Shown: in pieces, positions 6,989 through 49,530 of the stretch | How the letters are laid out: each line of letters starts with the position of its first letter | How positions within the stretch are numbered: the stretch's first letter is position 1 | DNA from: an uncultured Dehalococcoidia bacterium | GTDB lineage: Bacteria; Chloroflexota; Dehalococcoidia; SZUA-161; SpSt-899 | Direction of reading: 5' to 3' | Length of the DNA: 54,978 nucleotides | Assembly: GCA_964634125.1 (NCBI GenBank) | Contig: CAZWIP010000002.1 | Span: 1-54,978, forward strand | Notes under the pieces: generated by a model | The model's input: the letters and a program-made list of their open reading frames with translations, nothing else | Databases searched by the model: none | Told to the model about the DNA's origin: nothing | Position numbers and translations under genes: made by a program

Positions 6989-7043
6989 GATTCGCATTGC
7001 TTCAAGGCAACTATTTGGTGTGTACCCTGAGTCATATTTTGTT

Positions 7044-7077
7044 TCCCCTTGCTGGTCTCTCGGGACTAGCTTAAAGG
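7044..7077 (-). promoter_or_regulatory. PyrR-binding RNA loop (anti-antiterminator), copy 1
   Basis: The minus-strand RNA is CCUUUAAGCUAGUCCCGAGAGACCAGCAAGGGGA. It matches the PyrR binding-loop pattern (CCUUUAA..CAGUCC-GAGAG-GCUG..AAGG) and two other copies at 40796 and 45026, with compensatory stem changes. Confidence 0.8.
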
Positions 7078-7090
7078 CAGCTCTGGATTG

Positions 7091-7119
7091 ATTATAGCAG
7101 GAGAGCTACACATTTCCAA
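7091..7119 (-). promoter_or_regulatory. Sigma70-like promoter of the pyrR leader
   Basis: The minus strand reads TTGGAA-17 nt-TATAAT. The -10 ends 13 nt upstream of the PyrR-binding loop. The promoter overlaps the hisF stop codon. Confidence 0.55.
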
Positions 7120-24022: not shown

Positions 24023-24105
24023 ATTTATCTCATTGCCATTATATAACAAAACGGGCCCCGGTTTCCCAGGACCCGTCCAGATTAAATTCACTTGTAAATA
24101 GTCTG

Positions 24106-25716: not shown

Positions 25717-26727
25717 TTATTTTTCTTTGTTTAGCAGGTCCTCGAATTTAATGAGGTCCTGATATTCAACAGTTGTGCTCATGGCCTGATTCTCAGCTTC
25801 AATGCCTGCTTCTTCAGCAGCAGCAATAGGGTTCATACCCCCAATCAGGATCATTCCTATCTTATTCAATTCCACCGGAATCTCGCAAACAGACTCGCTG
25901 GTGCTACCCATCAAAGCGATTGTTCCAAGGCCAGCCTGATTCATTCCCGAGACGGCCTCTTCAACGATAGGCCGGCAAATAGCAGGGATTTCACGGAAAT
26001 TGGCCAGTATCTTTCCATTTCCTTCACGGGAGGCTTTGCGCACCGATGTCATCTTTCCCCTTATAAAGACCTCAGACGGATCAAGTGACGATCCTGAGTA
26101 ATGTATGAGTTCGACAAACCGGCGGGGCTGCTTGTTTCTAATTTGCAGGATGCCCCCAAAGCGCGAATCCATGGGTACACCGGCTTTGAGCAATACTCCG
26201 TTCATTAGAACACTGCAGACTGTAGCTAAAGCGATCTTACCCTCCGGGATAACCATGTCTCCGATTTTATCTCCTTCATTGACTACCGCTACACGATCCC
26301 CTGCACAAAGGCCTGCTTTGAAAACCGGCGCCATGGCAGTTAGAGCCTTGCTGAATTTCTCTTGCGGAAAGAAGGAGATATTTACCGGTATCGATCCTGT
26401 ACGGACTTTCCAATCAAAGTTCGTCTGGAAAGCCTGCATCTCGATTTTGGAAAGTACCAGCCCAACCTTATCCTGAACCAGGGCGTTTTTGAGTTCCTCA
26501 ACACCCTGTTCAGTAATGATTCTACCGTCTCGACCAACCAGTTCAGTGAGCCCACGCTCATCCATAAGTTTTAAATGGTATCTAACCGCTCTCTCAGTGA
26601 GATCGATTCCATGATCCTGCAAACGACGAGCGATTATTCGAGCTCCAACAGGGTCCTGAGATTCATGCACAATTCTCAGAATAAGGAGCACTTTTCTCTC
26701 TACTTCCTGCGATTCGGTTCCAATCAT
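25717..26727 (-). CDS. NrpR-like nitrogen regulator (winged helix + one DUF128/NRD domain)
   Basis: The N-terminus ERKVLLILRIVHESQDPVGARIIARRLQDHGIDLTERAVRYHLKLMDERGLTELVGRDGRIITEQG matches the archaeal NrpR pattern. At 336 aa it equals an HTH plus a single NRD. Confidence 0.7.
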   Translation of the reverse strand: MIGTESQEVERKVLLILRIVHESQDPVGARIIARRLQDHGIDLTERAVRYHLKLMDERGLTELVGRDGRIITEQGVEELKNALVQDKVGLVLSKIEMQAFQTNFDWKVRTGSIPVNISFFPQEKFSKALTAMAPVFKAGLCAGDRVAVVNEGDKIGDMVIPEGKIALATVCSVLMNGVLLKAGVPMDSRFGGILQIRNKQPRRFVELIHYSGSSLDPSEVFIRGKMTSVRKASREGNGKILANFREIPAICRPIVEEAVSGMNQAGLGTIALMGSTSESVCEIPVELNKIGMILIGGMNPIAAAEEAGIEAENQAMSTTVEYQDLIKFEDLLNKEK

Positions 26728-26756: not shown

Positions 26757-26773
26757 GTAGGTAACTGTTTACC
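26757..26773 (-). promoter_or_regulatory. 17-nt box A, copy 1 (palindromic core GGTAA-N4-TTACC); candidate operator
   Basis: The minus strand reads GGTAAACAGTTACCTAC, identical to the box at 40631-40647. It lies 18 nt downstream of the -10 of the nrpR promoter, and a half-copy (GGTAACAGTT) lies between the two. Confidence 0.6.
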
Positions 26774-31218: not shown

Positions 31219-31476
31219 ATGAGTGAGCGAGCTTACGTACTAATCAAGGCAGAAAAGGGCCAGGAGCCTACCGCAGTTACTGAATTGGGCAATAGGCCAG
31301 AATTATTGGCAGTGGATCGCGTGTTTGGTCAGTACGATATTGTGGCATTGATTGAAGCAGAAGATCTTGACGAATTGATTAGAATTGTGGGTGAAGACAT
31401 TGCATCAGCAGAACACGTTATGCGTACAGAAACACTAGTTATAACATCCGGAAGGAAGCCTAGGCCCAAGAGCTGA
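31219..31476 (+). CDS. Stand-alone Lrp/AsnC ligand-binding (RAM) domain protein
   Basis: 85 aa. AYVLIKAEKG...VDRVFGQYDIVALIEAEDLDEL...RTETLVI fits the RAM fold pattern. A possible promoter TTGTAA-16-TACAAT sits at 31136-31163. Confidence 0.6.
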   Translation: MSERAYVLIKAEKGQEPTAVTELGNRPELLAVDRVFGQYDIVALIEAEDLDELIRIVGEDIASAEHVMRTETLVITSGRKPRPKS

Positions 31477-31545: not shown

Positions 31546-32880
31546 TTACAGGATCGGCAAATACCTGTTCACTTCATAATCGGTGACCTGCGTTCGGTAT
31601 TGATCCCATTCGATCTTCTTGTTGGCAATGAAGTTTTTGAAAACGTGGTCGCCAAGTGCATCCCGGACCAGTTCACTCTTCTCGGTTAGGAGTATTGCCT
31701 CCTTCAAGGTGCCTGGAAGCATTCCGATTCCCCTGCGCTCCCTTTCTTCATCACTCATTGTATAGACATTTTCCTCCACCGGATCGGGAGCCTTCAATCC
31801 CTTTTCGATGCCATCAAGTCCAGCTGCCAGCATCACCGCAAAAGTAAGGTATGGGTTGCATGCCGGATCCGGAGATCGCATCTCAAGACGGGTAGACTTC
31901 TCTCGGCCGACCCTGTATTCCGGGATCCTGATAAGATCAGATCGATTGCGCTGGGCCCACGAGAGATAAACCGGGGCCTCATATCCCGGAACCAGTCGCT
32001 TGTATGAATTGACCCACTGGTTGCAGATGGAGGTAATTGCCGGCGCATGTTCAAGCAATCCTGCGCAATAGCTCTTGGCCAAATCCGAAAGATGGAAAAG
32101 CGCATCTTTTTCGAAGAAAGCATTGGAATCCCCTTTGAATAATGACTGATGAACGTGCATGCCGCTTCCATTGACGCCGAAAACCGGCTTGGGCATGAAA
32201 GTGGCATATACTCCATACTTCTGTGCCGTTTGTTTTACAACAAGCCGATAAGTCATTACGTTATCTGCCATTGAAAGAGCATCTGTGTATCGCATATCTA
32301 TTTCATGCTGGCTACCGGCTACTTCGTGGTGAGAATATTCAACGCCAATCCCCATCTCTTCAAGGGTAATAACTGTATCCCGTCTGTATTCGGTGGCAGC
32401 ATCTGCGGTCAGATCGAAATACCCAGCCGTATCAAGCATTTCAGTTCCGACAGAATCCTTGAAATAAAAATATTCCAGCTCAGGGCCAACATAAAAGGTA
32501 TAACCCATGTCGGATGCACGCTTTAGCATTTTTTTCAATACGTATCTGGGATCGCCCTCATAAGGCTCACCGGAAGGTTTCACCACATCACAGAACATTC
32601 GGGCCGCGGCACGGTGTTCTTTTGGCCGCCAGGGGAGGAGGCACCAGGTATCAGGATCAGGGAAAGCCATCATGTCACTTTCATCAATTCGGGCATATCC
32701 CTCAATAGAGGATCCGTCAAAGCCCATCCCTTCCTCTAGTGCTCCTTCCAGTTCTTCCACAGTAATGGTGAAGCTCTTCAGGAAACCCAGAATATCCGTG
32801 AACCACATCCTGATGAATTTCACATCATGCTCTTTGGCCATCTGGAGCACATATTCTTTACCTTTTTGTTTGTCAGTCAT
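31546..32880 (-). CDS. glnA: Glutamine synthetase, type I (444 aa, short GSI-alpha-like form)
   Basis: Contains FTDILGFLKSF, GSSIEGY, FMPKPVFGVNGSGMHVHQSLF and NRSDLIRIP, with AGGAGGAGAA as the SD. Confidence 0.9.
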   Translation of the reverse strand: MTDKQKGKEYVLQMAKEHDVKFIRMWFTDILGFLKSFTITVEELEGALEEGMGFDGSSIEGYARIDESDMMAFPDPDTWCLLPWRPKEHRAAARMFCDVVKPSGEPYEGDPRYVLKKMLKRASDMGYTFYVGPELEYFYFKDSVGTEMLDTAGYFDLTADAATEYRRDTVITLEEMGIGVEYSHHEVAGSQHEIDMRYTDALSMADNVMTYRLVVKQTAQKYGVYATFMPKPVFGVNGSGMHVHQSLFKGDSNAFFEKDALFHLSDLAKSYCAGLLEHAPAITSICNQWVNSYKRLVPGYEAPVYLSWAQRNRSDLIRIPEYRVGREKSTRLEMRSPDPACNPYLTFAVMLAAGLDGIEKGLKAPDPVEENVYTMSDEERERRGIGMLPGTLKEAILLTEKSELVRDALGDHVFKNFIANKKIEWDQYRTQVTDYEVNRYLPIL

Positions 32881-32903: not shown

Positions 32904-32940
32904 GTATTAGCGTAACAACCAAATGTTACAAACAGATTAC
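32904..32940 (-). promoter_or_regulatory. glnA promoter region with phased GTnAC boxes (box B)
   Basis: The minus strand reads GTAAT-ctgttt-GTAACA-tttggt-TGTTAC-gc-TAATAC. This is an 18-bp perfect palindrome (32912-32929) abutting a -10-like hexamer. Confidence 0.6.
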
Positions 32941-32956
32941 ATCGTTTTTCCAGTTT

Positions 32957-34515
<1,559 letters not shown>

Positions 34516-34554: not shown

Positions 34555-34611
34555 ACGATAGTAACAAGCGGATGTTACCATCAAATTACCGTTAGGTTAC
34601 GGTTGTGTTAC
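34555..34611 (-). promoter_or_regulatory. amt promoter region with four phased GTnAC/GTAAT boxes plus an inverted box (box B array)
   Basis: The minus strand reads GTAACA-caacc-GTAACC-taacg-GTAAT-ttgatg-GTAACA-tccgct-TGTTAC-TATCGT. Box starts are spaced 11, 11, 11 and then 13 nt. The palindrome at 34561-34578 has the same form as the one at glnA. Confidence 0.6.
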
Positions 34612-34646
34612 AAGAAAGAAGTTTGAAGGGGGCAAAATGATTGAGG

Positions 34647-35399
34647 TTAAACTTTGAATTTATATCCGACACTCCGCACCGTCTCAATGAATGAATGTCC
34701 GGCATCCTCGATCTTGCTGCGAAGTCGGCGAATATGAACATCAACAGTGCGGTCACCGCCAAAGTAATCGTATCCCCAGATTTCATTGAGCAGGGTATCG
34801 CGGGTAAAAGCAATCCCTTTGCTGCTTGCCAGGAATCTTAGTAATTCATATTCCCTGAAGGATAGATTGACCGTCTTTCCGGCAACAGATACCTCATACT
34901 TGGCCAGGTCGATAACAAGGTCTCCGTGCTTAATCAGGCTATCGCTGTCAATATCTCTTATCCGCCATAAGACCTGTTTGATGCGCATAGCCAGTTCCAC
35001 CGGATCGCATGGTTTAAGGAGGAAATCTTCGATACCGCGGGTGACATCGAATTCAGTCAGGGTATCTTCTGTGATAAGAGCGATTACCGGCAAACCGACT
35101 TCGCTCTTTAGCATTCGGACAAATCCGTATTCACCAGCGTCAGGGGAGGAAAACTCTATATCCGTCAGCAATAGATCAGGTTGGTATTCTTCTATTGCCT
35201 CGATGGCTCCTTTACCGTACGGCACAACAGAACTGCCATAACCTCTAGAAGCCAGTTCAATACATAGCTCCTCCAAAGCATCGCTACCACTGGTGATAAA
35301 CAGTACCTTTGTCCGAACAGTTTGACCCTTGGAGTCGTTCAACTCACTCGAAAACGGAGTTACGGCGCTTCCAGTATTCCGAGTTTTTATGTTAATCAT
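34647..35399 (-). CDS. OmpR/PhoB-family response regulator with atypical receiver (orphan in this window)
   Basis: C-terminal winged helix (LSFREYELLRFLASSKGIAFTRDTLLNEIWG...TVDVHIRRLRSKI). The receiver keeps Asp (LLLTDIEF) and Lys (FLLKPC). It reads FITSGSD where typical receivers have the acidic pair. Confidence 0.8.
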   Translation of the reverse strand: MINIKTRNTGSAVTPFSSELNDSKGQTVRTKVLFITSGSDALEELCIELASRGYGSSVVPYGKGAIEAIEEYQPDLLLTDIEFSSPDAGEYGFVRMLKSEVGLPVIALITEDTLTEFDVTRGIEDFLLKPCDPVELAMRIKQVLWRIRDIDSDSLIKHGDLVIDLAKYEVSVAGKTVNLSFREYELLRFLASSKGIAFTRDTLLNEIWGYDYFGGDRTVDVHIRRLRSKIEDAGHSFIETVRSVGYKFKV

Positions 35400-35417: not shown

Positions 35418-36179
35418 CTAAATAGCATATAATCTGCCATAGGGTCTAAGAGAAAGCGCTGAAAGTTTGGAAAATTCACCTCGCCCGATTATTTCCTCTG
35501 CATCGGCACCAAAATAGCTTGCATATTCTTCAATAAGTGGTATTAACACTCTCCAGTCATTTTCATCCAATTCTGCCACGCCGACTTCCTTGCCTAGTTG
35601 ATAATCATTGATCTTCCCTCTCAAGTAAATCACTCCGCCATGCATACCGGTGCCCACAAAATTCGCCCGGTGATATTCTCCTTCAGAGAGATCAAGCCCG
35701 AGCACCACCAAAACCCCTCCAGCCATATATTCACCGAGGAAATCCTGGGAGGAATCTCCAATCACAATAGTCGGTTTTTTGCCTTTGTATTCTTTCATGT
35801 GGATTCCGTTACGATATCCAACGTAATCACGAATAAATATCTTGCCACCTCTGGCAGAAAGACCGGTAATATCCCCGGCATGGCCATGAATGACTATTAG
35901 ACCTTCATCCATGGTATTGCCGGTGCCGTCCTGTGCATTACCATGTACCGTAATTCGGGGTCCTTTCATGAAAGACCCCAATGCGCCACCCGGAGTCCCA
36001 TGTATTTCTATCTCCACCGATGTGTTGAGATTCGTACCGATATACTTCTGACCGTAACAGTTCCGAAGTGTTATGTGCTGTGAGCCATCTGCTACCAATT
36101 CCCTTAGCCGAGCATTCATTTGTCGATGGGTTAGGCCCATAGCATCAATTTCAACTGTTGATTTGGTTGCTGTTACCAT
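35418..36179 (-). CDS. Glutamate synthase domain-3-like protein (GXGXG beta-helix)
   Basis: Repeated GxGxG-type turns (IEIHGTPGGALGSFMKGPRITVHGNAQDGTGNTMDEGLIVIHGHAGD...). Confidence 0.75.
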   Translation of the reverse strand: MVTATKSTVEIDAMGLTHRQMNARLRELVADGSQHITLRNCYGQKYIGTNLNTSVEIEIHGTPGGALGSFMKGPRITVHGNAQDGTGNTMDEGLIVIHGHAGDITGLSARGGKIFIRDYVGYRNGIHMKEYKGKKPTIVIGDSSQDFLGEYMAGGVLVVLGLDLSEGEYHRANFVGTGMHGGVIYLRGKINDYQLGKEVGVAELDENDWRVLIPLIEEYASYFGADAEEIIGRGEFSKLSALSLRPYGRLYAI

Positions 36180-36191
36180 TTTAAACTCCTT

Positions 36192-37697
36192 TCAGTTTCC
36201 AGCCTGCCGGACGCCAAGAACTTCCAGTTCGGTATCGGTCAAGTGAACTCCCCTCAGATGCAATCGATTGCCGCGTACGCTTTCCAGCGCGTTGATCCCC
36301 ATGCCTCCCAGCATGTCTTTTATTTCCAGGCTCCAGCCACGCAGGAGATTGGTAAGCCGTTCAGCTCCAATTTCCGGATTGATCCGTTTGGTCAGAATCG
36401 GATCGGTAGTGCATATACCCCAGGCACATTTCCCCGTAGGACACTGCTGACAAGTAGTGCACCCCAGCGCAACCAGCGCCGAAGTGGCAATGTAAACGGC
36501 ATCCGCACCCAAAATGACCGCTTTCAGGACATCGGTGCTCCGACGAATTCCCCCTGCAACTACCAGTGAAGCTCTGTTACGTATTCCCTCTTCTCTCAAA
36601 CGGGTATCCACTGCTGCCAGGGCCAGTTCAATCGGAATGCCAACATTATCCCGAATTACTTTCGGTGCTGCGCCCGTCGACCCCCTCAGTCCGTCGAGAA
36701 CGATCATGTCTGCCCCGGCGCGAACCATTCCACTGGCGATGGCTGCCGCATTGTGAACCGCTGCTATTTTCACCGAAACTGGCTTAGTGTAGTTTGTTGC
36801 CTCTTTTATCGCATAAACCAGTTGTGCCAGGTCCTCAATTGAATAGATGTCATGCTGTGGAGCCGGGGAGATCGCGTCTGATCCCTGCGGAATCATGCGC
36901 GTCATGGCCACGTCTTCACTCACTTTTTCACCCGGCAAATGCCCACCGATTCCCGGCTTCGCGCCCTGCCCAATTTTTATTTCCGCTATTCTAGCGGCAT
37001 CCAGATATTCAGGATGCACACCGAACCTGCCAGAAGCCACCTGAACAATGGTATTATCGGCATATTTTTGTAGACTACGATGAAACCCACCCTCTCCCGT
37101 GTTCCACATTACACCTGCGGCCGTAGCTGCCCGCGCCAGCGATTCCTGAACATTGAGACTGACCGCACCGTAAGACATGGCAGAAAACATCACCGGAAGG
37201 GCAAGCTCAACCTGAGGCGCAAGGATGGTCTTGAGGTCCATCGTGACCGGATCCAACTCTACCCGCTCCGGTTTGCGCCCAATGAAAGTTGTAAGCTCCA
37301 TCGGCTCACGAAGGGGATCGATGGAAGGATTGCTAACCTGAGCGGCATTCAACAACAGATGATCCCAGTAAACAGGGTATTCCTTATCATTACCCATACC
37401 GGTGAGCAGGATACTCCCCGTTTCAGCCTGCTTCTTGATATCCTCGATAACCTCCGGACGCCAGTTGTAGTTCTGCCGGTAATTGCGGGGATTCTCCCGA
37501 ATTGTAATAGCATTGGTGGGGCAGAATAACATGCATCGATGGCATCCCACGCAATTGTGTTCCCGACTGCATACTTCGTCATCTTCGGGATCGTAATAAT
37601 GTGTTTCAAAGCTGCACTGATTGACGCATACCTGGCATTGAATACAGCGAGTTTGGTCGCGTTCCACTATGAATTTTGCCGGCAAATATGTTTTCAT
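36192..37697 (-). CDS. Glutamate synthase FMN-binding domain (GltB domain 2) with N-terminal 2x[4Fe-4S] ferredoxin (archaeal-type)
   Basis: CIQCQVCVNQC and CVGCHRCMLFCP at the N-terminus, then GEGG, KIGQGAKPGIGGHLPG, DGLRGSTGAAP and the 3Fe-4S-like CTTCQQCPTGKC. Confidence 0.85.
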   Translation of the reverse strand: MKTYLPAKFIVERDQTRCIQCQVCVNQCSFETHYYDPEDDEVCSREHNCVGCHRCMLFCPTNAITIRENPRNYRQNYNWRPEVIEDIKKQAETGSILLTGMGNDKEYPVYWDHLLLNAAQVSNPSIDPLREPMELTTFIGRKPERVELDPVTMDLKTILAPQVELALPVMFSAMSYGAVSLNVQESLARAATAAGVMWNTGEGGFHRSLQKYADNTIVQVASGRFGVHPEYLDAARIAEIKIGQGAKPGIGGHLPGEKVSEDVAMTRMIPQGSDAISPAPQHDIYSIEDLAQLVYAIKEATNYTKPVSVKIAAVHNAAAIASGMVRAGADMIVLDGLRGSTGAAPKVIRDNVGIPIELALAAVDTRLREEGIRNRASLVVAGGIRRSTDVLKAVILGADAVYIATSALVALGCTTCQQCPTGKCAWGICTTDPILTKRINPEIGAERLTNLLRGWSLEIKDMLGGMGINALESVRGNRLHLRGVHLTDTELEVLGVRQAGN

Positions 37698-37709
37698 AAT
37701 AGTTATCCT

Positions 37710-38858
37710 TTACGCCTGTAAGACTTTTTCAGGTGACTGCAATCTCCCAATCACCGGCTGTCCTCCTGTGGGAATCCATGCCCTGTCAAGGTCAGGTTCG
37801 ACAAGCCGAATAGCCGATTCCTCACTGGAAAGATACAACATGCTGCCCTTTTCTCCTACGGTTAACGGACGAAGCCGTATGCGATCCGTGAGGCCGATCA
37901 TTTCACCCTTGTGCGCAATGATTACAGTGAATGGCCCGTTGAGCAAGAGGCCGGAATAAACCTGCCGCAAGGTGCAGCACAGTTCCTGTTCGCCTGCCGG
38001 CATCCGCTTTATATGTTCCCAGAAAGGAGGAGCAAATACTTTTGCGGCTATCTCCATTGGAAGATTGTGTTTTCGAACCAGTAGGTCAATTGCATAGATG
38101 ATGACCTCGGTATCAGTATGCATGGTGCACACATAACCGCGCTCCTCAAGATAGCGCCGATTGGTTCCATAGGAAGATATCTCCCCATTATGAACTACCG
38201 TCCAATCGAGTATGCTGAACGGATGGGCTCCACCCCACCATGCTTGAGTGTTTGTCGGAAATCTGCCGTGGGCGGTCCACAGGTGTCCTTCGTAGTCCTC
38301 AAGCCCGAAATGCTCGGCGATATCTTCCGGGTATCCGACCCCTTTGAAAACACCCATATTTTTCCCGCTGGAGAAAACGAATGCACCTTCGATAAGGGTG
38401 TTGATTTCCATCACCCGGTCTACAACGTAATCATCATCGGATTGGCTTTCGTGTTTGGAACTGCCGACGGTAAGGAAATAGCGCCAGAGTTTCGGTGGAT
38501 TGGAAATTCTGGGAGCTTTGAAAGTCGGAACCTCTTCGACATGATCCCAGTGGAATCTCTCTTTCAGAAAGGATTCCGTCTTTTCCCGCGCCTCGTTGCT
38601 CATGTACATGATATGGAATGCATAGTGATCGAGATGCTTGGGATAGATGCCATAAATGGCGAATCCACCGCCAAGTCCGTTTCCCCGCACATGCATGTTC
38701 CGAATGGCATCGATCACGCGTTTGCCGGAAAAGGGGTTTCCCGAAGTGTCCATTGCCCCAAAGATGGAGCAGGCAGACATCAATTTGTCGTCATTGTATG
38801 GGTTATTGATTGCTGAAAGATTTCTCATTTCATTATCCCTCGTCTGATACATCTTCAA
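37710..38858 (-). CDS. Class II (Ntn) glutamine amidotransferase, glutamate synthase domain-1-like
   Basis: The ACSIFGAMD nucleophile-Cys context follows a short leader, and the GATase_2 core has WTAHGRFPTNT and HNGEISSY. The start may instead be the ATG at 38828, which removes the overlap with the upstream gene. Confidence 0.75.
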   Translation of the reverse strand: MKMYQTRDNEMRNLSAINNPYNDDKLMSACSIFGAMDTSGNPFSGKRVIDAIRNMHVRGNGLGGGFAIYGIYPKHLDHYAFHIMYMSNEAREKTESFLKERFHWDHVEEVPTFKAPRISNPPKLWRYFLTVGSSKHESQSDDDYVVDRVMEINTLIEGAFVFSSGKNMGVFKGVGYPEDIAEHFGLEDYEGHLWTAHGRFPTNTQAWWGGAHPFSILDWTVVHNGEISSYGTNRRYLEERGYVCTMHTDTEVIIYAIDLLVRKHNLPMEIAAKVFAPPFWEHIKRMPAGEQELCCTLRQVYSGLLLNGPFTVIIAHKGEMIGLTDRIRLRPLTVGEKGSMLYLSSEESAIRLVEPDLDRAWIPTGGQPVIGRLQSPEKVLQA

Positions 38859-40161
38859 TTTCTTCAGGCACGGTAATGGAACTCAATTTACTGAGATCGG
38901 GCAATTCCAGCCGACTTCGCAGCACCTCTTCAGGGAGCGAAATAATCCCGAACTCTTCGCTCAGCAGCGAATCCTTGAAATCGCTCACATCCACCCCATC
39001 CCGCAGCAAACCGAAGTATATTCCGGCTTTCTCAATATCTCGAACCAGCACCATTCCCACCAGTTTGCCATTTTGGAGCACGAATTTTTGATAGCGACCG
39101 TCATCTCGCTGGCTCAGCACTTCACATTCGATATCTCTCATCGGATTGACCATTCCCGCAGAGGCAATCGACAAGCCAAAATATTTCAACGAGTTCATCG
39201 CAGTACCGCCAGGGTATTCCGCCTCTCTTCCGGCCATGTTATAGCCAGCAATCCTCCCGCCGATATGCGCATTGGGCCAGATGGGAACTACCCGATCACC
39301 ATCAATGATGAAATCATATGATTCCGCTACATCGCCGCAGGCATACACATCCGGGTTGCTCGTTGCCATATGACAATCTACTAGAATTCCCCGGTTCACT
39401 TTTATATCGGTATCCTTGACCAAATCGATTCTTGGCACGACGCCAATGGCCACGATGACCAGGTCGCACTCTATCTCTTCCCCATCATCCAGAATTACGC
39501 CACTTACGATTCCATCATCTCCGACTATGGTTTTGACGGTATGCCTGGTACGGAATTGCACTCCCGTAGCTTCCACCACTTCTTGTGCCATCAGTGAGGC
39601 TTCCTCATCCAGCACTATGCCAAGGATTCTATCCATCAACTCAACAACAATCACATTAATGCCAAGCTTCTTAAGCGCATCCGTAACACTAATCCCAATT
39701 AAGCCTCCACCAATAACCACAGCTTTCTGAGCACCATCCTTAACCATTTCGGCGATCCCTTTGGCATTATCGAGTGTGGTGAAAGTAAAGACGCCGCGCT
39801 TTTCAGCCCCATCCATAGTGGGAAAGATGGGATTGCCGCCAGTGGATAATAGCAGTTTTTGGTAGGAAATCTTTTCCGTATCGGCCAGTTCCACCTCACC
39901 CGCAGCAATGTCGAGGCGGACAACTTCCTTCCCCAAAATTGTCTGAACCTTATTCACTGTGTAAAAATCATTCGAACGGTAGAGCATTCCGTTCAAATCC
40001 CTTTCCCCTGCCAAATGCTCTGAAATGAGCGGTCTCGAATACACCGGATAGGGCTCATCGGAAATGATCGTGATTGCCCCTTCCAAATCGATCAATCGAA
40101 TGGTTTCGACTGCGCCGATGCCACCGGCAGAATTACCAATAATCAAGTAATCAGTTCTCAT
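38833..40161 (-). CDS. FAD/NAD(P)-dependent pyridine nucleotide-disulfide-family oxidoreductase
   Basis: Start taken at MRTDYLIIGNSAGGIGA (FAD fold). Second Rossmann fold AVVIGGGLIGISVTDAL, plus ACGDVAE. The start overlaps the upstream ferredoxin stop. Confidence 0.75.
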   Translation of the reverse strand: MRTDYLIIGNSAGGIGAVETIRLIDLEGAITIISDEPYPVYSRPLISEHLAGERDLNGMLYRSNDFYTVNKVQTILGKEVVRLDIAAGEVELADTEKISYQKLLLSTGGNPIFPTMDGAEKRGVFTFTTLDNAKGIAEMVKDGAQKAVVIGGGLIGISVTDALKKLGINVIVVELMDRILGIVLDEEASLMAQEVVEATGVQFRTRHTVKTIVGDDGIVSGVILDDGEEIECDLVIVAIGVVPRIDLVKDTDIKVNRGILVDCHMATSNPDVYACGDVAESYDFIIDGDRVVPIWPNAHIGGRIAGYNMAGREAEYPGGTAMNSLKYFGLSIASAGMVNPMRDIECEVLSQRDDGRYQKFVLQNGKLVGMVLVRDIEKAGIYFGLLRDGVDVSDFKDSLLSEEFGIISLPEEVLRSRLELPDLSKLSSITVPEEIEDVSDEG

Positions 40162-40609
40162 TGATCTCCCCCCAGAGCAATGCCTCGTTGGGGCAGTTGG
40201 CCACACATGCAGGCGTTTCTAAATGGAAACAAAGATCGCATTTGCTGGCTTTCTTCCTATTCACATCTGGCGAAATAGCCCCGTACGGGCATGCAATAAC
40301 GCAAGTCCAGCAACCGACGCACTTATCGATATCAACGGCAACAATGCCGGTTACAGGATCCTTGGTAAGCGCTCCTGTCAAACATGAATACACACATAAA
40401 GGCTCATCGCAATGGCGGCATCCCAGCGCGAATGACATGGGCCCCTTCTCTTCGACGTGCAATCGCGGCATTGGCCTCGGCTTCTCTCGCTTGAATGTTT
40501 TTATCATATCGCCTGACTTTGAATGAGCTGTAATACAATGCACCTCGCACAACCGACAGGCCATGCAAACTTCCGGTTTGGGATAAACTTTTCTGGTAAT
40601 CATCTTCAT
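40151..40609 (-). CDS. Multi-cluster 4Fe-4S ferredoxin
   Basis: 152 aa with CMACRLCEVHC, CRHCDEPLCVYSC, CVGCWTCVIACP and CDLC...CVANCP. Confidence 0.8.
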   Translation of the reverse strand: MKMITRKVYPKPEVCMACRLCEVHCITAHSKSGDMIKTFKREKPRPMPRLHVEEKGPMSFALGCRHCDEPLCVYSCLTGALTKDPVTGIVAVDIDKCVGCWTCVIACPYGAISPDVNRKKASKCDLCFHLETPACVANCPNEALLWGEINEN

Positions 40610-40630: not shown

Positions 40631-40647
40631 GTAGGTAACTGTTTACC
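40631..40647 (-). promoter_or_regulatory. 17-nt box A, copy 2; candidate operator
   Basis: The minus strand reads GGTAAACAGTTACCTAC, identical to 26757-26773, and the next 4 nt match 3/4. It lies 14 nt downstream of the -10 and 21 nt upstream of the ferredoxin ATG. Confidence 0.6.
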
Positions 40648-40751: not shown

Positions 40752-40780
40752 TTGGAAAATGTTTTTTGGCCTGTTATAAT
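40752..40780 (+). promoter_or_regulatory. Sigma70-like promoter of the hisF2-carB leader
   Basis: TTGGAA-17 nt-TATAAT, the same hexamers as the pyrR promoter. The -10 ends 15 nt before the PyrR-binding loop. Confidence 0.6.
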
Positions 40781-40795
40781 GTCAAGGAACAAAGA

Positions 40796-40828
40796 CCTTT
40801 AAGCCAGTTCTGTGAGACCGGCAAGGGA
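40796..40828 (+). promoter_or_regulatory. PyrR-binding RNA loop, copy 2
   Basis: CCUUUAAGCCAGUUCUGUGAGACCGGCAAGGGA. It has the same fold as copies 1 and 3: outer CCUU/AAGG, inner GCCAGU/ACCGGC. Confidence 0.8.
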
Positions 40829-40890
40829 GAAGAAAACATATGTGCTCTCTGGCGATGCAAAATCGAAAGAGTCGATGTAAAGCATAAATT

Positions 40891-40925
40891 CCTCTTGTTG
40901 AGTAATAGCAAGAGGAGTTTTTTTG
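40891..40925 (+). terminator. Attenuator terminator of the hisF2-carB leader
   Basis: CCUCUUG-uugaguaauag-CAAGAGG followed by AGUUUUUUUG. It lies 54 nt upstream of the hisF2 ATG. Confidence 0.75.
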
Positions 40926-40978
40926 TGCCCAAATATCGGTAAACCATGTTTGGCTAAGAAAAAAATTGGAGGTCTGCA

Positions 40979-41743
40979 ATGGATATAGTCAAAGTCATTC
41001 CCTGCCTGGACATGTTGAAGGGGAGAGTCGTAAAGGGAGTACATTTCGTTGAGTTGCGTGATGCAGCCGATCCTGTCGAAACGGCAAAAGCCTATTCCGA
41101 AGGAGGGGCAGACGTAATCGCATTTCTGGATATCACCGCAACCATAGAAGACAGACGGACAATGTTCGATGTGCTTGAAAAGGTGGCGGCAGTGGTGAAA
41201 ACACCGCTAACAGTTGGCGGGGGAATAAAGTCTATCGACGACATCGAACAGGCCATGAAATCGGGGGCAAGCTGTGTTTCCATTTCCAGTGCGGCTTACC
41301 GGGATGCGGACCTGGTCAAAGAGGCTGTGAAGCAATTCGGGGCCGGGAAGATCATGATAGCCATTGACGCCGATGAGAACAAGTCACTGCCCTCCGAACG
41401 CGAGGTCTACATCGATGGGGGCCGTACCGCCACAGGCAAGGATGCCGTGGAATTTGCCAAAGAGATGGCTACCATCGGAGTCGGACAGATACTGCCCACC
41501 AGCAAGGCCACTGACGGCACCAAAGCTGGATTTGACATTCACCTGACCCGATCCATCGCTGACGCGACCGGGCTGCCGGTGATCGCCAGCGGAGGCGCCG
41601 GCACCCTGGAACACTTTTACGAAGCTGTCGCCGAAGGGCACGCCCAATCTGTGCTGGGTGCTTCGGTGTTCCACTTTGGAACATTCACTATCAAAGAGGT
41701 AAAGGAATACCTTAAATCGCGCGGGATCGCGGTCAGCTTGTAA
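40979..41743 (+). CDS. HisF paralogue (cyclase-like TIM barrel) with altered glutaminase-docking and ammonia-gate residues
   Basis: MDIVKVIPCLDMLKGRVVKG, AIDA, TVGGG and ASGGAG are retained. The gate/dock positions read K, V (ADVIAFLD), S-C (GASCVS) and Q (GVGQILPTS). Confidence 0.8.
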   Translation: MDIVKVIPCLDMLKGRVVKGVHFVELRDAADPVETAKAYSEGGADVIAFLDITATIEDRRTMFDVLEKVAAVVKTPLTVGGGIKSIDDIEQAMKSGASCVSISSAAYRDADLVKEAVKQFGAGKIMIAIDADENKSLPSEREVYIDGGRTATGKDAVEFAKEMATIGVGQILPTSKATDGTKAGFDIHLTRSIADATGLPVIASGGAGTLEHFYEAVAEGHAQSVLGASVFHFGTFTIKEVKEYLKSRGIAVSL

Positions 41744-41767
41744 TAAAAAACAGGAGGGAGTTCTTCA

Positions 41768-44700: not shown

Positions 44701-44968
44701 ATCCGAACTCATTCTCAAAATGCATGAAGGTCGGCCCAACATCGTTGACGGCATAATGAACGGAGAGATTCAACTAGTCATCAATACTCCGGTTGGCAAA
44801 CGAAGTCAATATGACGATTCTTACATTCGCAAAGCAGCGATCAAACACAAAATCCCGTATATCACGACTCTGGCCGGAGCGGCTGCGGCAGTCAGAGGAA
44901 TCGCGGCACATCGCAGAGGCGCTGCAGGGGTCAGGTCGTTACAGAGCTATCATGCCGATATTAAGTAA
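41768..44968 (+). CDS. carB: Carbamoyl-phosphate synthase large subunit, copy 1
   Basis: 1066 aa with two ATP-grasp halves (IGSGPIVIGQACEFDYSG; LGGGPNRIGQGIEFDYC), an oligomerisation domain and an MGS-like allosteric domain. The SD is AGGAGGGA. Confidence 0.9.
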   Translation: MPRRDDIKKVMIIGSGPIVIGQACEFDYSGTQACKALRGLGYEIVLVNSNPATIMTDPGMADVTYIEPLNMETMERIIEKERPDALLPNLGGQTALNLSSALAKAGVLDKYGVKIIGVDIDAIERGEDRIAFKNMMDKLGIEMPESTAVYNVEDAENVAAELGYPVVIRPAYTMGGTGGGLVYNVEELRVVASRGISASLIGQILVEESVLGWEELELEVVRDAKNQMITVCFIENVDAMGVHTGDSYCTAPMLTISPELQKRLQEYSYKIVESIQVIGGTNVQFAHDPKTDRVVVIEINPRTSRSSALASKATGFPIALISSLLAGGLTMDEIPYWRDGTLEKYTPSGDYVVVKFSRWAFEKFKDAEDKLGTQMRAVGEVMSIGKNYKEAFLKAIRSLEKGRYGLGFAKDFNEKSLEELMEMLNEPSSERQFIMYEALRKGADIQELHQKTYIKAWFIEQMKELVELEEKVLTYKGKVLPDDLLIQAKKDGFADRYLAQILVIAEKEIREKRIGLGMTEGWEPVPVSGVENAAYYFSTYNAPDKTTATSNRKIMVLGGGPNRIGQGIEFDYCCVHAAFALRDEGYETIMVNCNPETVSTDYDTSDKLYFEPLTVEDILSIYEKEKPEGVVAQFGGQTPLNIAAELEAVGVKILGTSPDTIDLAEDRDRFSAMMAKLGIPMAESGMASKLEDALAIANRIGYPLMVRPSYVLGGRGMEVVHDEEMLEEYFAAAVGVTPDRPILIDRFLDNAIEAEADAIADGTDAFVPAIMEHIELAGVHSGDSACVIPPVSIPEKHIDTIYEYTKKIAKELHVVGLMNMQYAICNDIVYVLEANPRASRTVPIVSKVCGLSMARIAMQIMMGKKLADLDLKPQSIPHFGVKQAIFPFPMFPEVDPVLGPEMRSTGEVLGMADSFGLALFKSEEAGQQCLPDEGAVLLTVVDKNEDTVLPTARQFVELGFKIKATEGTREFLTQNGIESELILKMHEGRPNIVDGIMNGEIQLVINTPVGKRSQYDDSYIRKAAIKHKIPYITTLAGAAAAVRGIAAHRRGAAGVRSLQSYHADIK

Positions 44969-44974
44969 TTTTCT

Positions 44975-45011
44975 GTAATATGTTTGTAACATTTCAGTAG
45001 TACGATATAAA
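44975..45011 (+). promoter_or_regulatory. carA promoter region with phased GTnAC boxes (box B)
   Basis: GTAAT-atgttt-GTAACA-tttcag-TAGTAC-ga-TATAAA. 19 of the first 20 nt are identical to the glnA site read on its own strand. Confidence 0.55.
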
Positions 45012-45025
45012 CTAGTCTGGTTAAA

Positions 45026-45058
45026 CCTTTAAGCCAATCCCGTGAGATCGGCAAGGGA
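45026..45058 (+). promoter_or_regulatory. PyrR-binding RNA loop, copy 3
   Basis: CCUUUAAGCCAAUCCCGUGAGAUCGGCAAGGGA. The inner-stem G-C pair of copy 2 is replaced by A-U, which is a compensatory change. Confidence 0.8.
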
Positions 45059-45091
45059 AACACAAATGAATCGAATAAAGAAATTCAACGA

Positions 45092-45131
45092 ATGCCTCTT
45101 GCCAATTTATTGGTAAGAGGCATTCTTATAT
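45092..45131 (+). terminator. Attenuator hairpin of the carA leader
   Basis: AUGCCUCUUGCCAA-uuua-UUGGUAAGAGGCAU, a 14-bp stem followed by UCUUAUAU, which is a weaker U tract than in the other two leaders. Confidence 0.6.
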
Positions 45132-45166: not shown

Positions 45167-46254
45167 GTGAATAAACAAAAGGCATTTCTGGCACTGGAAG
45201 ACGGATCATTCTACGAAGGTCATTCCTTCGGGGCTGAGTTACAGACCTCCGGTGAAGTTGTCTTCACCACCAGCATGACAGGGTATCAGGAGGTTTTAAC
45301 CGACCCGTCATTTGCAGGGCAGTAATCCCCACCTACCCAATGATCGGCAACTACGGCATCAACGATCAGGATTACGAATCAAAAAGAATACAGGTTGCCG
45401 GATTTGTGGTTCGTGAGGAATGTGAGGTTCCCAGTCATGGGTTAAGCACTCGCACTTTGCATGAGTATTTGCTGTCACAGAATATCCCCGGACTGAGTGG
45501 CATCGATACCCGATCACTGGTTCGAAAGCTTCGCTCCCACGGTGTTATGATGGGAATCCTTTCACAGGGAATTGATCCGCAAGAAGCACTGGCGCAGCTC
45601 GAATCCATACCTCGCTATGACAGCATCGATTTCGTTAAGGAAGTAACCACAAGGGAAGCTTTCGAGTGGGAGCCTTCAATGGATCAAACCGGACCCAGAA
45701 TTGCCCTGCTCGATTCGGGCACCAAATTCAACATCCTGCGGAGTTTGCATCGCCTGGGATGCTCGATCACAGCGCTTCCTTGCACGACCAGCGCGGAAGA
45801 CGTGATGAAATTAAACCCGGACGGCATCTTCTTTTCGCCCGGCCCTGGCGATCCCGCCTTGCTTGATTATCTGATTGGTACCATTCGGGAATTGGTAGAA
45901 AAGAAACCGGTAATGGGTATTTGCCTGGGACATCAGTTGATCGGACGGGCATTCGGAGCTGAAACGTTCAAGCTCAAATTCGGGCATCGAGGTGCGAATC
46001 ACCCGGTGAAGGATATGGAAACAGGTCGCGTGTATATCACTGCCCAGAACCATGGTTATGCCATCGATGCTGACACGGTGAAGAGTGGGCTGGAAGTTTC
46101 GCATATCAATTTAAATGACGGTACGGTTGAGGGACTAAGACACCGCGAACTGCCGCTCTTTACTATCCAATACCATTCGGAAGCCTCTCCAGGCCCGCTG
46201 GATAATATGTATCTATTTGAGCGATTTGTAGAGATGGTTAAGGAGAACATGTGA
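45167..46254 (+). pseudogene. carA: Carbamoyl-phosphate synthase small (glutaminase) subunit, reading frame disrupted at about 45322
   Basis: A GTG start at 45167 gives [22 protein letters not shown]...LTDPSFAGQ, then TAA at 45323. Homology resumes in another frame from 45322 ([14 protein letters not shown]...). The rest is intact, including GICLGHQL and YHSEASPGP. Confidence 0.75.
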
Positions 46255-46305
46255 TATGATTCACCCTCACCCAGCCTCTCCCTCAAGGGAGAGGGGCTAA
46301 GTACA

Positions 46306-49300
46306 ATGTCTGAAATATCTAAAGTTCTAGTCATAGGATCAGGCCCGATAATCATCGGGCAAGCGGCGGAGTTCGACTATTCCGGCAGCCAGGCGTGTCG
46401 TGCTTTGCGCGAAGAGGGAATAACTACGGTATTAGTGAACTCCAATCCGGCCACAATCATGACCGACGAAGGTATCGCTGATACTGTCTACATCGAACCT
46501 CTCACGGTAGAAATCGTAAAAAAGATAATCGAAAAGGAACGCCCCGACGGTCTATTGCCTACTCTTGGCGGTCAAACCGGACTCAATTTAGCTGTAGATT
46601 TAGCCAAAGCAGGAATATTGGATGAGTACGGTGTTCGTACATTAGGCACCTCCATAGAAACCATACAGATTGCTGAAGACCGAGGATTATTCAAACAACT
46701 GCTAATCGATATTGGCGAACCAGTGCCTGATAGTGCAACCGTGACCAATATGGATGAGGCCCGAGAAGTGGCACAATCCATCGGCCTACCACTCGTAATT
46801 CGACCCGCATACACCCTCGGTGGAACAGGTGGAGGTATTCCCAGGACCGAGGAAGAGTTCGAATTAATAACCTCCCATGGCATTGCTATGAGTCCTATTC
46901 ATCAAGTTCTCTTGGAAAAGTGTCTCATCGGTTGGAAGGAGATGGAGTACGAGGTGATGCGTGATGGTGATGACAACTGCATCACCATCTGTAATATGGA
47001 GAATATCGATCCGATGGGTATCCATACCGGCGAGAGTATCGTGGTGGCTCCCAGCCAGACACTCACGGACAAAGAATATCAGATGCTTCGCTCTGCAAGC
47101 CTGCGGATTATTCGGGCTTTGGGGATCGAAGGTGGATGTAATGTGCAATTTGCACTCGAACCCCATCCTATCGTTGGAACGCGTCGAGAAGGTGAAAGTC
47201 CATACTATGTAATTGAAGTAAACCCCCGTGTGAGCCGTAGTTCTGCGCTGGCAAGTAAGGCTACAGGCTATCCCATCGCTCGTGTGGCTGCCAAGATCGC
47301 GGTGGGAAAAACACTCGACGAAATCGCGAACAAAGTGACCGGCAAGACCACTGCCGCTTTTGAGCCCGCATTGGATTACTGTGTGGTTAAAATCCCGCGC
47401 TGGCCGTTCGATAAGTTCACCAAAGGGAATCGTAATTTGGGTACGCAAATGAAATCCACAGGCGAAACCATGGCCATCGAGCGCACCTTTGAAGCGGCAT
47501 TGAAGAAAGCGGTGCGATCGTTGGAAGTAGACACTAGGACCATGCTTTGGGAGGATCCGACGTGGAGAGACGGATACTTTCCGCTCGAACCCACTGACCA
47601 GCGTTTATGGGCAGTTTTTGCTGCGCTCAGACAGGGCATGATCACAGAAGAGTTGTGCCACAGAACCGGCGGCATCGATCCATGGTTTCTGTATAAGTTC
47701 CAAAATATTGTCGATATGGAAAACCGACTACGTTCCGAACCGCTGGCTGCTAAGCTTATGCGAGATGCCAAGCGAATGGGTTTCTCTGATAGAGAAATCG
47801 GCATCCTTGCGAGTCATTCTGCCGAGGAAATTCGAAAAATGCGGCATCAATGGGGTCTGCGCCCGGTATACAAAATGGTGGACACCTGTGCGGCTGAATT
47901 CGCCGCAGAAACCCCCTATTTTTATAGTACATATGAACAGGAAAATGAAGCTATTCCAATAACAGGGGAAAAGGCGCTAGTCGTTGGTAGTGGGCCTATT
48001 AGAATCGGGCAGGGTATTGAGTTCGATTACTGTAGCATTCATTCTGCCTGGGCTCTGCAGGAGAATGGAGTGAAGGCCATCATGGTCAACTCGAATCCAG
48101 AGACCGTTTCTACCGACTTCGATACCAGCGATCGCCTTTATTTCGAACCTCTTGACGAAGAAAGCATCCGCGATATCTTGGAAAATGAGACAGCAGAGTC
48201 AGCCAGTCCTTCGGCATCGATTGTACAATTTGGAGGGCAGACATCGATAAACCTGGCGGAACCACTAACACGTAGCGGTTTGACACTCTTGGGATCGAGT
48301 TTCGATAGCATCGATCTGGCTGAAGACCGGGATCGTTTCCAGGATATGATGAACAAGCTTGGCATTCCGATGGCCGAATCTGGAATGGCCAGTAGTCTGG
48401 ATGAAGCGTTAGTCATTGCTGAGAGAATCGGGTATCCGCTAATGGTACGGCCTTCTTATGTGCTCGGTGGACGGGGCATGGAGATAGTCTATGATGAAGA
48501 GATGCTCACGGAGTACTTTGTTGCTGCCATCGATGTTACCCCGGATCGACCGATACTAATCGACAGATTTTTAGAGAATGCTATCGAGGTTGAAGCAGAC
48601 GCTATTGCTGATGGAACCGATGCATTCGTACCAGCGATCATGGAGCACATCGAACCGGCGGGGATTCATTCGGGCGATTCCGCCTGCGTCATCCCGCCGG
48701 TCAGCCTTCCCCAGAAGCACATTGATACTATTAATGAATACACCAAGAAGATAGCAAAAGAGCTTAATGTAATTGGATTGATGAACATCCAATATGCCAT
48801 TTGCGAGGATAAGGTCTACGTCATTGAAGCGAATCCGCGTGCCTCGCGTACTGTGCCAATTGTATCCAAGGTTTGTGGGCTGTCTATGGCTCGGCTGGCG
48901 ACGGAAGTAATGTTAGGAAAGAAAATTGCCGATCTGGGACTGAAGCAGCGTACAATTCCACACTACGGGGTTAAACAAGCGGTATTTCCATTTCCCATGT
49001 TTCCTGAGATGGACCCGATACTAGGCCCCGAAATGAGGTCCACCGGTGAAGTTTTGGGGATATCGGATTCCTTTGGGATGGCACTTTTCAAGGCAGAGGA
49101 AGCTACGCGTCAACCGCTTCCAACTGAAGGATGCGTACTCTTTACTGTCGCGGATAAAGACAAAACAACATTAACGGCAGTAGCTAAACAATTTGCAGAT
49201 CTGGGATTCAACTTCAAAGCAACACAGGGTACAGGCGAATTATTGTCCAAAAGCGGCATTGATGCCGAGTCTATACTAAAAATGCATGAGGGCCAGCCAA

Positions 49301-49530
49301 ACATCGTTGATGGAATTATTAATGGGGATATCCAACTGATCATCAACACACCGGCTGGTAAAACAAGCAAGCATGATGATTCCTATATTCGCAAGACTGC
49401 GATCAAATATAGAGTTCCTTATATCACCACTATGGCCGGAGCGGCCGCTGCTGCTAAGGGAATCGCTGCGTACTGTCAAGGGCACGTAGAGGTCAAATCC
49501 CTCAAAGAGCATCATGCTGGTATTAAGTAG
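46306..49530 (+). CDS. carB: Carbamoyl-phosphate synthase large subunit, copy 2
   Basis: 1074 aa with the same domain order as copy 1. The C-terminal ~40% is much closer to copy 1 than the N-terminal part is. Confidence 0.9.
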   Translation: MSEISKVLVIGSGPIIIGQAAEFDYSGSQACRALREEGITTVLVNSNPATIMTDEGIADTVYIEPLTVEIVKKIIEKERPDGLLPTLGGQTGLNLAVDLAKAGILDEYGVRTLGTSIETIQIAEDRGLFKQLLIDIGEPVPDSATVTNMDEAREVAQSIGLPLVIRPAYTLGGTGGGIPRTEEEFELITSHGIAMSPIHQVLLEKCLIGWKEMEYEVMRDGDDNCITICNMENIDPMGIHTGESIVVAPSQTLTDKEYQMLRSASLRIIRALGIEGGCNVQFALEPHPIVGTRREGESPYYVIEVNPRVSRSSALASKATGYPIARVAAKIAVGKTLDEIANKVTGKTTAAFEPALDYCVVKIPRWPFDKFTKGNRNLGTQMKSTGETMAIERTFEAALKKAVRSLEVDTRTMLWEDPTWRDGYFPLEPTDQRLWAVFAALRQGMITEELCHRTGGIDPWFLYKFQNIVDMENRLRSEPLAAKLMRDAKRMGFSDREIGILASHSAEEIRKMRHQWGLRPVYKMVDTCAAEFAAETPYFYSTYEQENEAIPITGEKALVVGSGPIRIGQGIEFDYCSIHSAWALQENGVKAIMVNSNPETVSTDFDTSDRLYFEPLDEESIRDILENETAESASPSASIVQFGGQTSINLAEPLTRSGLTLLGSSFDSIDLAEDRDRFQDMMNKLGIPMAESGMASSLDEALVIAERIGYPLMVRPSYVLGGRGMEIVYDEEMLTEYFVAAIDVTPDRPILIDRFLENAIEVEADAIADGTDAFVPAIMEHIEPAGIHSGDSACVIPPVSLPQKHIDTINEYTKKIAKELNVIGLMNIQYAICEDKVYVIEANPRASRTVPIVSKVCGLSMARLATEVMLGKKIADLGLKQRTIPHYGVKQAVFPFPMFPEMDPILGPEMRSTGEVLGISDSFGMALFKAEEATRQPLPTEGCVLFTVADKDKTTLTAVAKQFADLGFNFKATQGTGELLSKSGIDAESILKMHEGQPNIVDGIINGDIQLIINTPAGKTSKHDDSYIRKTAIKYRVPYITTMAGAAAAAKGIAAYCQGHVEVKSLKEHHAGIK

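Follow-up and report, generated by a model that had tools for sequence, protein, structure and literature searches.

Regulators of the OmpR/PhoB family bind direct repeats with a period of ~11 bp that overlap or replace the -35 region of a promoter, as the pho boxes do. One of them is the OmpR-type GlnR, which the open-access literature searched presents as the actinobacterial master regulator of nitrogen; full-text searches of that literature gave no account of such a GlnR regulon from Chloroflexota or Dehalococcoidia, and the system described here is apparently unpublished in Chloroflexota. Dehalococcoidia occur in large numbers in marine water columns, sediments and aquifers, and hardly any have been cultured. 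The present analysis deals with arrays of GTAAC-type boxes located in front of the genes amt, glnA and carA in a 54,978-nt stretch of DNA (contig CAZWIP010000002.1; hereafter the window) from an uncultured marine Dehalococcoidia bacterium. The window has a G+C content of 47%, and the closest relatives of its genes come from metagenome-assembled genomes (MAGs) of Dehalococcoidia (Chloroflexota). An initial annotation had likened the boxes to those of the actinobacterial GlnR and had proposed, as the protein binding them, the OmpR-family regulator encoded immediately upstream of the amt site, designated here as P0001. This interpretation is supported by the results given below: the cis-element is almost certainly real, and it is likely that the arrays work like GlnR boxes with the adjacent orphan regulator as the best candidate binder, the binding by P0001 being what we infer from sequence comparisons. 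The GlnR-type control would thus probably work also outside Actinobacteria.

The closest described system, GlnR, is known from the structures 8HIG, 8HIH and 8HML of the proteins from Saccharopolyspora erythraea and Mycobacterium tuberculosis, including a complex crystallised on DNA of the type GTAACA-n5-GTAACA (GTAACATCGCGGTAACA), in which the bases are read by R186, V190, R193 and R194 (PMC10235972). The published boxes, gTnAc and GaAAC, lie 6 nt apart, usually in four sites, and GlnR activates as four head-to-tail protomers, the b2 site being located downstream of -35 (PMC10235972). The arrays of the window agree with these boxes in the half-site G(T/A)AAC, in the 6-nt spacers, in the typical number of four sites and in the head-to-tail direct repeats; the likeness extends to the proximal site downstream of the -35 position, to the targets (amtB-glnK and glnA) and to the protein, an orphan regulator with an atypical receiver and four identical base-contacting residues. 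The differences concern the host, which is here a member of the Chloroflexota (Dehalococcoidia), the receiver, more degenerate here and with neither the acceptor Asp nor the Lys conserved across the family, and the gene, which closes an archaeal-type split glutamate-synthase operon and in many cases comes directly behind nrpR. Two further differences are that the regulator operon is apparently under a candidate NrpR operator and that the regulon here includes carA-carB2 with its PyrR attenuator.

In each of the three arrays, direct repeats recur every 11 bp; amt has four of them, glnA and carA have two each. The amt array, on the minus strand, reads GTAACA-caacc-GTAACC-taacg-GTAAT-ttgatg-GTAACA-tccgct-TGTTAC-TATCGT and comprises box 1 (GTAAC, 34607..34611), box 2 (GTAAC, 34596..34600), box 3 (GTAAT, 34585..34589) and the promoter-proximal box 4 (GTAACA, 34573..34578), the box starts at 34611, 34600, 34589 and 34578 being separated by 11-nt steps, with 13 nt then leading to GTTAC. 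The glnA site (32940-32904, minus strand) reads GTAAT-ctgttt-GTAACA-tttggt-TGTTAC-gc-TAATAC, with the distal box GTAAT at 32936..32940 and the proximal box GTAACA at 32924..32929, and the carA site (44975-45011, plus strand) reads GTAAT-atgttt-GTAACA-tttcag-TAGTAC-ga-TATAAA, with the distal box GTAAT at 44975..44979 and the proximal box GTAACA at 44986..44991. The letters of these three strings, the agreement of the glnA site with that of carA in 19 of the first 20 nt and the 11-nt steps at amt had all been reported correctly, as verified in the sequence and from the coordinates. The pattern GTAA[CT]-N6-GTAAC occurs four times in the window, always on the sense strand and always at the amt, glnA and carA promoters, the chance expectation being ~0.2 by our estimate.

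To describe the element independently of the window, related loci were collected by a search with an alignment of the regulator family, which yielded 80 loci, almost all from Dehalococcoidia MAGs, with a total of 820 kb. The motif was then obtained by expectation-maximisation on 51 amt upstream regions of these relatives, seeded from those sequences alone and with the window excluded. The resulting de novo 56-nt motif, ctGTAACAcaaatTTAACaTnnctGTAATaTgntnGAAACAatnccCcncTAaAcT, is composed of four direct repeats with an 11-bp period, followed by a 9-nt spacer and a -10 element of the form TAnAnT. In the relatives, GTAAT is the consensus of box 3, box 4 is GAAACA or GTAACA, always 9 nt before the -10, and box 2 is mostly TTAAC, in which the Dehalococcoidia differ from the actinobacterial GlnR boxes. 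With the position weight matrix (PWM) derived from the relatives, the three sites picked out by the annotation take ranks 1-3 of the 55-kb window. The 34-nt proximal matrix and the 56-nt matrix give, respectively, 25.3 and 14.3 bits at glnA (34-nt match at 32909-32942), 23.8 and below 8 bits (unlisted) at carA, and 19.5 and 37.8 bits at amt (56-nt match at 34558-34613, with box 1 at its positions 3-7), the best of 200 Markov-shuffled windows reaching 17.7 bits (mean maximum 9.7) with the former matrix and 13.7 bits with the latter. The related loci (820 kb) contain 77 matches of ≥17 bits, where ~0.1 would be expected (shuffles gave 0-1), and every one of the 77 lies on the strand of the genes. 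These matches precede amt, second amt copies, glnK, glnA, a second-type glutamine synthetase and once the regulator gene itself, and a match is present in 51 of the 57 loci holding genes of the amt, glnK or glutamine synthetase type. Across the Dehalococcoidia, then, nitrogen genes have these arrays as conserved promoter elements tied to one strand, in which the boxes are kept while the spacers vary.

Concerning the promoter-proximal end of the sites, the initial annotation needs to be revised. It counted five boxes at amt and three at both glnA and carA, the true counts being four and two, as the last element is not conserved as a box: at the position of TGTTAC or TAGTAC, distant as well as closer relatives keep only the TA of the -10. 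All that is fixed there in the relatives is a TA, which comes exactly 9 nt behind the proximal box and opens a TAnnnT hexamer. The simplest interpretation is that of an extended -10 at amt and glnA together with a plain one at carA. The predicted extended -10 of amt, TGT TACTAT (34558..34566, minus strand), includes the presumed fifth box TGTTAC and aligns with the TAaAcT column of the motif; that of glnA, TGT TACGCT (32909..32917, minus strand), starts 9 nt after the proximal box; and the predicted -10 of carA, TACGAT (45001..45006, plus strand), overlaps the presumed TAGTAC box. The form TGTTAnnnT is present in a subset of the relatives, and the -10 of the carA relatives reads TATAGT, TATAAT, TACTAT or TACCGT, exactly 9 nt after GTAACA. 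TGTTAC and TAGTAC are best taken as a spacer plus a predicted TAnnnT -10 rather than as a box, which would make the inverted-repeat look of GTAACA-n6-TGTTAC a by-product, and the hexamers TATCGT, TAATAC and TATAAA, previously assigned as -10, are therefore probably misplaced, lying 3-8 nt too far downstream. In the glnA promoter of a close relative (L089), GTAATatgtttGTAATAtttacTTGTTACATT, TGT-TACATT is retained, the proximal box is kept as GTAATA and TAATAC is gone. This relative belongs to a sister lineage (L089-L094, regulator 90% identical) in which amt and most of glnK have been lost, leaving a remnant of the glnK 3' end; the lineage has nevertheless kept both promoters, that of amt with four boxes and that of glnA with two, arranged in tandem before glnA (e.g. 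L089, 1700-2115).

With the predicted -10 placed at -12 to -7, the boxes are positioned at about -27/-22, -38/-34, -49/-45 and -60/-56. With 9 nt between the last true box and the TAnnnT -10 downstream of it, the boxes straddle the -35 position, as in the GlnR activation complex. A search for -35-type sigma-70 promoters at the amt, glnA and carA sites found none, the nrpR and glt promoters, by contrast, carrying TTGACA. The earlier statement that the boxes replace the -35 region is to be corrected in that the arrangement is not a simple replacement.

The regulator P0001 (250 aa; 34647..35399, minus strand) is a GlnR-like orphan member of the OmpR/PhoB family, encoded by the last gene of the glutamate-synthase operon within a minus-strand nitrogen supercluster with the gene order ferredoxin, flavoprotein, split glutamate synthase, OmpR-family regulator, amt, glnK and glnA. 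Its C-terminal OmpR/PhoB winged-helix domain scores 91.5 bits with the Pfam model Trans_reg_C, which matches all 23 aligned family members; as to the receiver, Response_reg is below the Pfam cut-off and GlnR_1st gives weak matches in 21 of the 23. The receiver is degenerate, with KVLFITSGSD in place of the acidic pair and, among the 23 family members, D, A or E at the acceptor position and K, E or S at the position of the conserved Lys, so that the regulator is presumably not switched by aspartate phosphorylation. No kinase gene adjoins the regulator among the flanking genes in the window or in the relatives. The best PDB matches of the single P0001 sequence are GlnR 8HIG and 8HIH (E ~1e-35), with MtrA, RegX3 and the DNA-binding domain of GlnR (8HML) ranking behind them. 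The DNA-binding domain of P0001 is 52% and 51% identical to that of GlnR without a gap, versus 39-41% to MtrA and RegX3, where the alignment has a gap of 2 residues, and the SaeGlnR residues R186, V190, R193 and R194 correspond to R217, V221, R224 and R225, invariant in the family. In the 80 related loci, amt follows the regulator within 1.2 kb in 43, and the regulator is preceded by the last glutamate-synthase gene (gltGXGXG) in 36 and by nrpR in 16.

Several observations weigh against arrays of the GlnR type bound by P0001. A rival reading is that another OmpR/PhoB-family regulator, such as a canonical PhoB/PhoP or an MtrA-like one, chiefly occupies the arrays or competes for them; these would then be Pho-type boxes or boxes shared as at the Streptomyces glnA and amtB. 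The residues of the recognition helix are common to PhoB-type regulators too, the helix RTVDVHIRRLR being shared with PhoB/PhoP; it is not GlnR-specific, and the base-contacting residues therefore do not discriminate. The pho boxes of PhoB/PhoP, e.g. of the Escherichia coli PhoB, are likewise 11-bp direct repeats, which stop ~10 nt short of the -10 where the promoter lacks a -35, and those of the Bacillus subtilis PhoP are TT(A/T/C)ACA repeats. In the family-profile search RegX3 is slightly above GlnR over the full length (160 vs 154 bits), and in the tree of DNA-binding domains GlnR, RegX3 and the Dehalococcoidia family form a polytomy. A metagenome scan was made with the four-box pattern, its many 11-bp simple tandem repeats being filtered by PWM score; near-identical arrays GTAACA-n5-TTAACA-n5-GTAAC-n6-GTAACA were found to precede pstS, PHO4 and Na/Pi-cotransporter genes, i.e. 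four-box GTAACA/TTAACA arrays before phosphate genes in the metagenome contigs L101, L130, L146, L193, L219, L195 and L206. It should be added that the carA site is absent in the more distant relatives L026, L028, L032, L043, L052 and L053, in which carA is close to the cluster, and that metatranscriptomes from the same studies contain nothing from the locus, the -10 elements and transcription start sites being predictions.

Given the near-identical arrays at phosphate genes of Nitrospirota, the type of box is shared with Pho boxes of other phyla and is by itself no sign of nitrogen control: the named homologues ~80% identical to the pstS product of L130 (one checked) belong to that phylum and not to Dehalococcoidia. 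The arrays are here assigned to nitrogen on the strength of gene context and synteny. Every strong match in the Dehalococcoidia loci precedes a nitrogen gene, no phosphate genes are present in the 80 related loci, and the orphan regulator is syntenic with the arrays; in the metagenome scan, the amt promoters in 13 loci account for all matches >44 bits with an identified downstream gene. Unlike PhoB/PhoP, moreover, the regulator has no acidic pocket and no PhoR partner nearby. In favour of the rival reading, a competition of PhoP and GlnR at glnA and amtB is described for Streptomyces coelicolor (PMC3561978). Another OmpR/PhoB-type protein as the main binder, or as a competitor on Pho-type or shared boxes, is considered unlikely.

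The same protein could also bind as a repressor, at all or some of the sites, by occluding the core promoter. The proximal box does lie between the -35 and -10 positions, with the boxes reaching -22, activation of carAB under nitrogen limitation is not obviously logical, and the actinobacterial GlnR represses some of its targets, e.g. ald in A. mediterranei (PMC4140684). The array promoters, however, have no -35 hexamer, whereas TTGACA is perfect in those promoters of the same loci that are under repressor control; a constant spacing of 9 nt to the -10 and one and the same orientation in 77 of 77 sites are typical of activator sites, and the geometry fits the GlnR activation complex with its b2 site downstream of -35. 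Repression is, in view of this, quite improbable, and that the sites serve activation rather than repression is what we infer from the geometry described.

The third possibility to be considered is that the NrpR homologue encoded in the window (25717-26727) binds the GTAAC arrays, e.g. through the GTAACA-n6-TGTTAC inverted repeat. The gene nrpR is part of the same nitrogen supercluster and is directly upstream of the OmpR-type gene in the 16 relatives mentioned above; the amt and glnA sites of the window do hold an 18-bp inverted repeat. That repeat is, however, not conserved, the relatives retaining only the TA of the -10 there, and two to four direct repeats at 11 bp misfit a palindrome-binding dimer. 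In methanogens, the NrpR operator is GGAA-n6-TTCC, released by 2-oxoglutarate. A separate palindrome of this type was found at the nrpR and glt promoters with TTGACA, no GGAA-n6-TTCC-type palindrome being found at the amt, glnA and carA array promoters. The candidate operator GGTAAACAGTTACC (14 bp) is located at 40634..40647, 3' of TTGACA-17-TAATCT, in the promoter of the operon of ferredoxin, glutamate synthase and regulator; a second, identical copy at 26760..26773 is located in the nrpR promoter, 3' of TTGACA-17-TATCAT, the flanks of both copies being CTAC(A/G)ACCT. The palindrome, GGTAA-n4-TTACC, has the same length and outline as the methanogen operator and, at both the nrpR and the glt promoter, overlaps the region of the start; it sits at -35-containing promoters, unlike the direct-repeat arrays, and its action is probably one level higher than that of the GlnR-like protein. 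Palindromes of this type, GG(T/A)AA-n4-TT(T/A)CC, are in the same place in L025, L030, L034, L046, L095, L097 and L098, and the NrpR-type palindrome is kept in at least eight related loci, that of L046 reading GGAAATAGGTTTCC, i.e. the methanogen consensus GGAA-n6-TTCC. NrpR would thus probably have its own operator and control the supply of the GlnR-like protein, its binding to the arrays being very improbable.

Finally, that the repeats are a chance or structural feature of DNA without a dedicated protein is hardly conceivable, since even though 11-bp tandem simple repeats of the GTAACA type occur in unrelated metagenome contigs, the 77 matches exceed the ~0.1 expected, are gene-oriented, keep a fixed distance to the -10 and combine variable spacers with conserved boxes in dozens of genomes. 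The Bacillus TnrA and GlnR (MerR family) and the cyanobacterial NtcA are also nitrogen regulators of glnA and amt genes, although belonging to protein families other than the OmpR-type; the TnrA (TGTNAN7TNACA) and NtcA (GTAN8TAC) sites had no match at the three promoters.

With regard to carA, the site is kept in five loci, L095-L099 (carA 85-89% identical), with variable spacers and a fixed geometry: the distal box is GTAAC, GAAAC or GTAAT, and the proximal one is invariantly GTAACA. The sites read GTAACatgactGTAACAtaattgcggTATAGT in L095 and L096, GAAACatatttGTAACAttgctggagTATAAT in L097, GTAATatggttGTAACAtttaagtagTACTAT in L098 and GTAACatggctGTAACAtttttgcgaTACCGT in L099. In the window, the site is followed by the PyrR-type attenuator leader of carA-carB2 (45022..45130, plus strand), matching Rfam RF00515 over the full model length with 47.8 bits (E=1e-5), and the same leader follows the carA site in L095-L099. 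Because site and leader are kept in these five closer relatives, and because the site is missing in the distant ones, carA-carB2 is predicted to be a clade-specific member of the regulon, with stacked control by nitrogen (initiation) and pyrimidine (attenuation). The nitrogen boxes are present on only one of the two carbamoyl-phosphate synthetase operons. The other, hisF2-carB1, has a sigma-70-like promoter TTGGAA-17-TATAAT with TG and without GTAAC boxes (region 40752-40926, plus strand), as well as a second PyrR-type leader at 40792-40926 (RF00515, 46.4 bits, E=1.3e-5). It should be noted that both leader scores are lower than the RF00515 gathering score of 54, and that Rfam at the gathering threshold gave zero matches in the whole window.

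Taken as activator sites of a GlnR-type nitrogen regulon, the arrays would be bound by P0001 head-to-tail, one protomer per G(T/A)AA(C/T) box, with the boxes one DNA turn (11 bp) apart. As the promoters have no -35 hexamer, the bound protomers would recruit RNA polymerase, in the way the four GlnR protomers do in the actinobacterial activation complex. The predicted targets are amt-glnK with four boxes, glnA with two, and carA-carB2 with two boxes and then the PyrR attenuator. The supply of the regulator would probably be set by NrpR via the candidate operator on the promoter of the operon ending in the regulator gene.

The presence of the NrpR-type palindrome at the promoter of an operon that ends in the regulator gene suggests a two-tier cascade, i.e. 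a hybrid nitrogen circuit of Dehalococcoidia with NrpR above the GlnR-like activator, which is proposed here only tentatively and is at present rather doubtful. In such a circuit, the archaeal-type NrpR, presumably sensing 2-oxoglutarate, would repress the glutamate-synthase operon via GGTAAACAGTTACC. With the phosphorylation-independent GlnR-like activator as the last gene of that operon, relief of NrpR repression would raise the activator. The activator would then turn on amt-glnK, glnA and, in the marine clade, the glutamine-dependent carbamoyl-phosphate synthetase carA-carB2, the hisF2-carB1 paralogue keeping its constitutive-type promoter and both operons their PyrR attenuators. If true, nitrogen status would choose which of the two carbamoyl-phosphate synthetases is made. 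In two relatives, the regulator gene is located outside the glutamate-synthase operon: in L074 (5865-5878) it is preceded by an NrpR-type palindrome after TTGACA-17-TACTAT, and in L072 (5953-5986) by a box array, a possible case of autoregulation.

What the window itself adds to the picture are the carA target with its PyrR attenuator, the re-assigned -10 elements and the candidate NrpR operators; of these, the connection with NrpR and the twofold control of carA by nitrogen and pyrimidine are concrete and open to testing. The motif, geometry and targets of the nitrogen regulon can be read directly from metagenomes, and a regulon defined by sequence offers a handle for predicting responses to nitrogen limitation in situ and a guide for reading metatranscriptomes. 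It also allows a test of whether the GlnR-type control is ancient or was transferred between phyla.

As far as the genes under the arrays are concerned, the amt-glnK operon spans 32957..34515 (minus strand; Pfam and the gene call in L081), amt starting with ATG at 34515 behind a GAGGTG ribosome site and glnK occupying 32957-33295, and glnA, the glutamine synthetase gene, spans 31546..32880 (minus strand; Pfam). The three genes of the archaeal-type split glutamate synthase (Pfam) are located at 35418-40609, minus strand. The gene nrpR (25717..26727, minus strand) encodes a full-length NrpR homologue with the Pfam domains HTH_12 and NRD1_2. On the plus strand, hisF2-carB1 is found at 40979-44968 and carA, with the start GTG at 45168, together with carB2 at 45168..49530 (Pfam and alignment with L081 and L082). 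The carA gene of the window has a frameshift at 45310-45325, caused by a 4-nt deletion (AGAT) after ...TTTGCAGGGC; the JGI metagenome contigs L081 and L082, otherwise identical to the window across 20.7 kb, carry an intact 388-aa carA, the frameshift being either an assembly error or a strain-level variant.

Among the neighbouring genes, those at 22904-25698 (minus strand), 3' of nrpR, encode a 530-aa protein, which matches Glu_synthase only in part, and an FAD oxidoreductase of the DAO family; they apparently share one operon with nrpR under the same palindrome. Convergent to glnA, a free-standing ligand-binding (RAM) domain of the AsnC/Lrp type, 85 aa long and lacking a DNA-binding domain, is encoded at 31219-31476 (plus strand), and this protein is kept in L081-L091. 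At 5203-6393 (minus strand), a 396-aa protein combines aspartate carbamoyltransferase with the metal-binding C-terminal domain of the PyrI regulatory chain, its gene adjoining that of a phosphoribosyltransferase-fold protein of PyrR size (6408-6956). A small protein starting with MSY(N/D)WGPH(F/Y)(I/L)VP recurs in the nitrogen clusters: in L002, where it has 126 aa and no Pfam match, its gene (6879-7259) lies directly 3' of a box array, and in L008, L029 and L045 it is found between the ferredoxin gene and gltOx.

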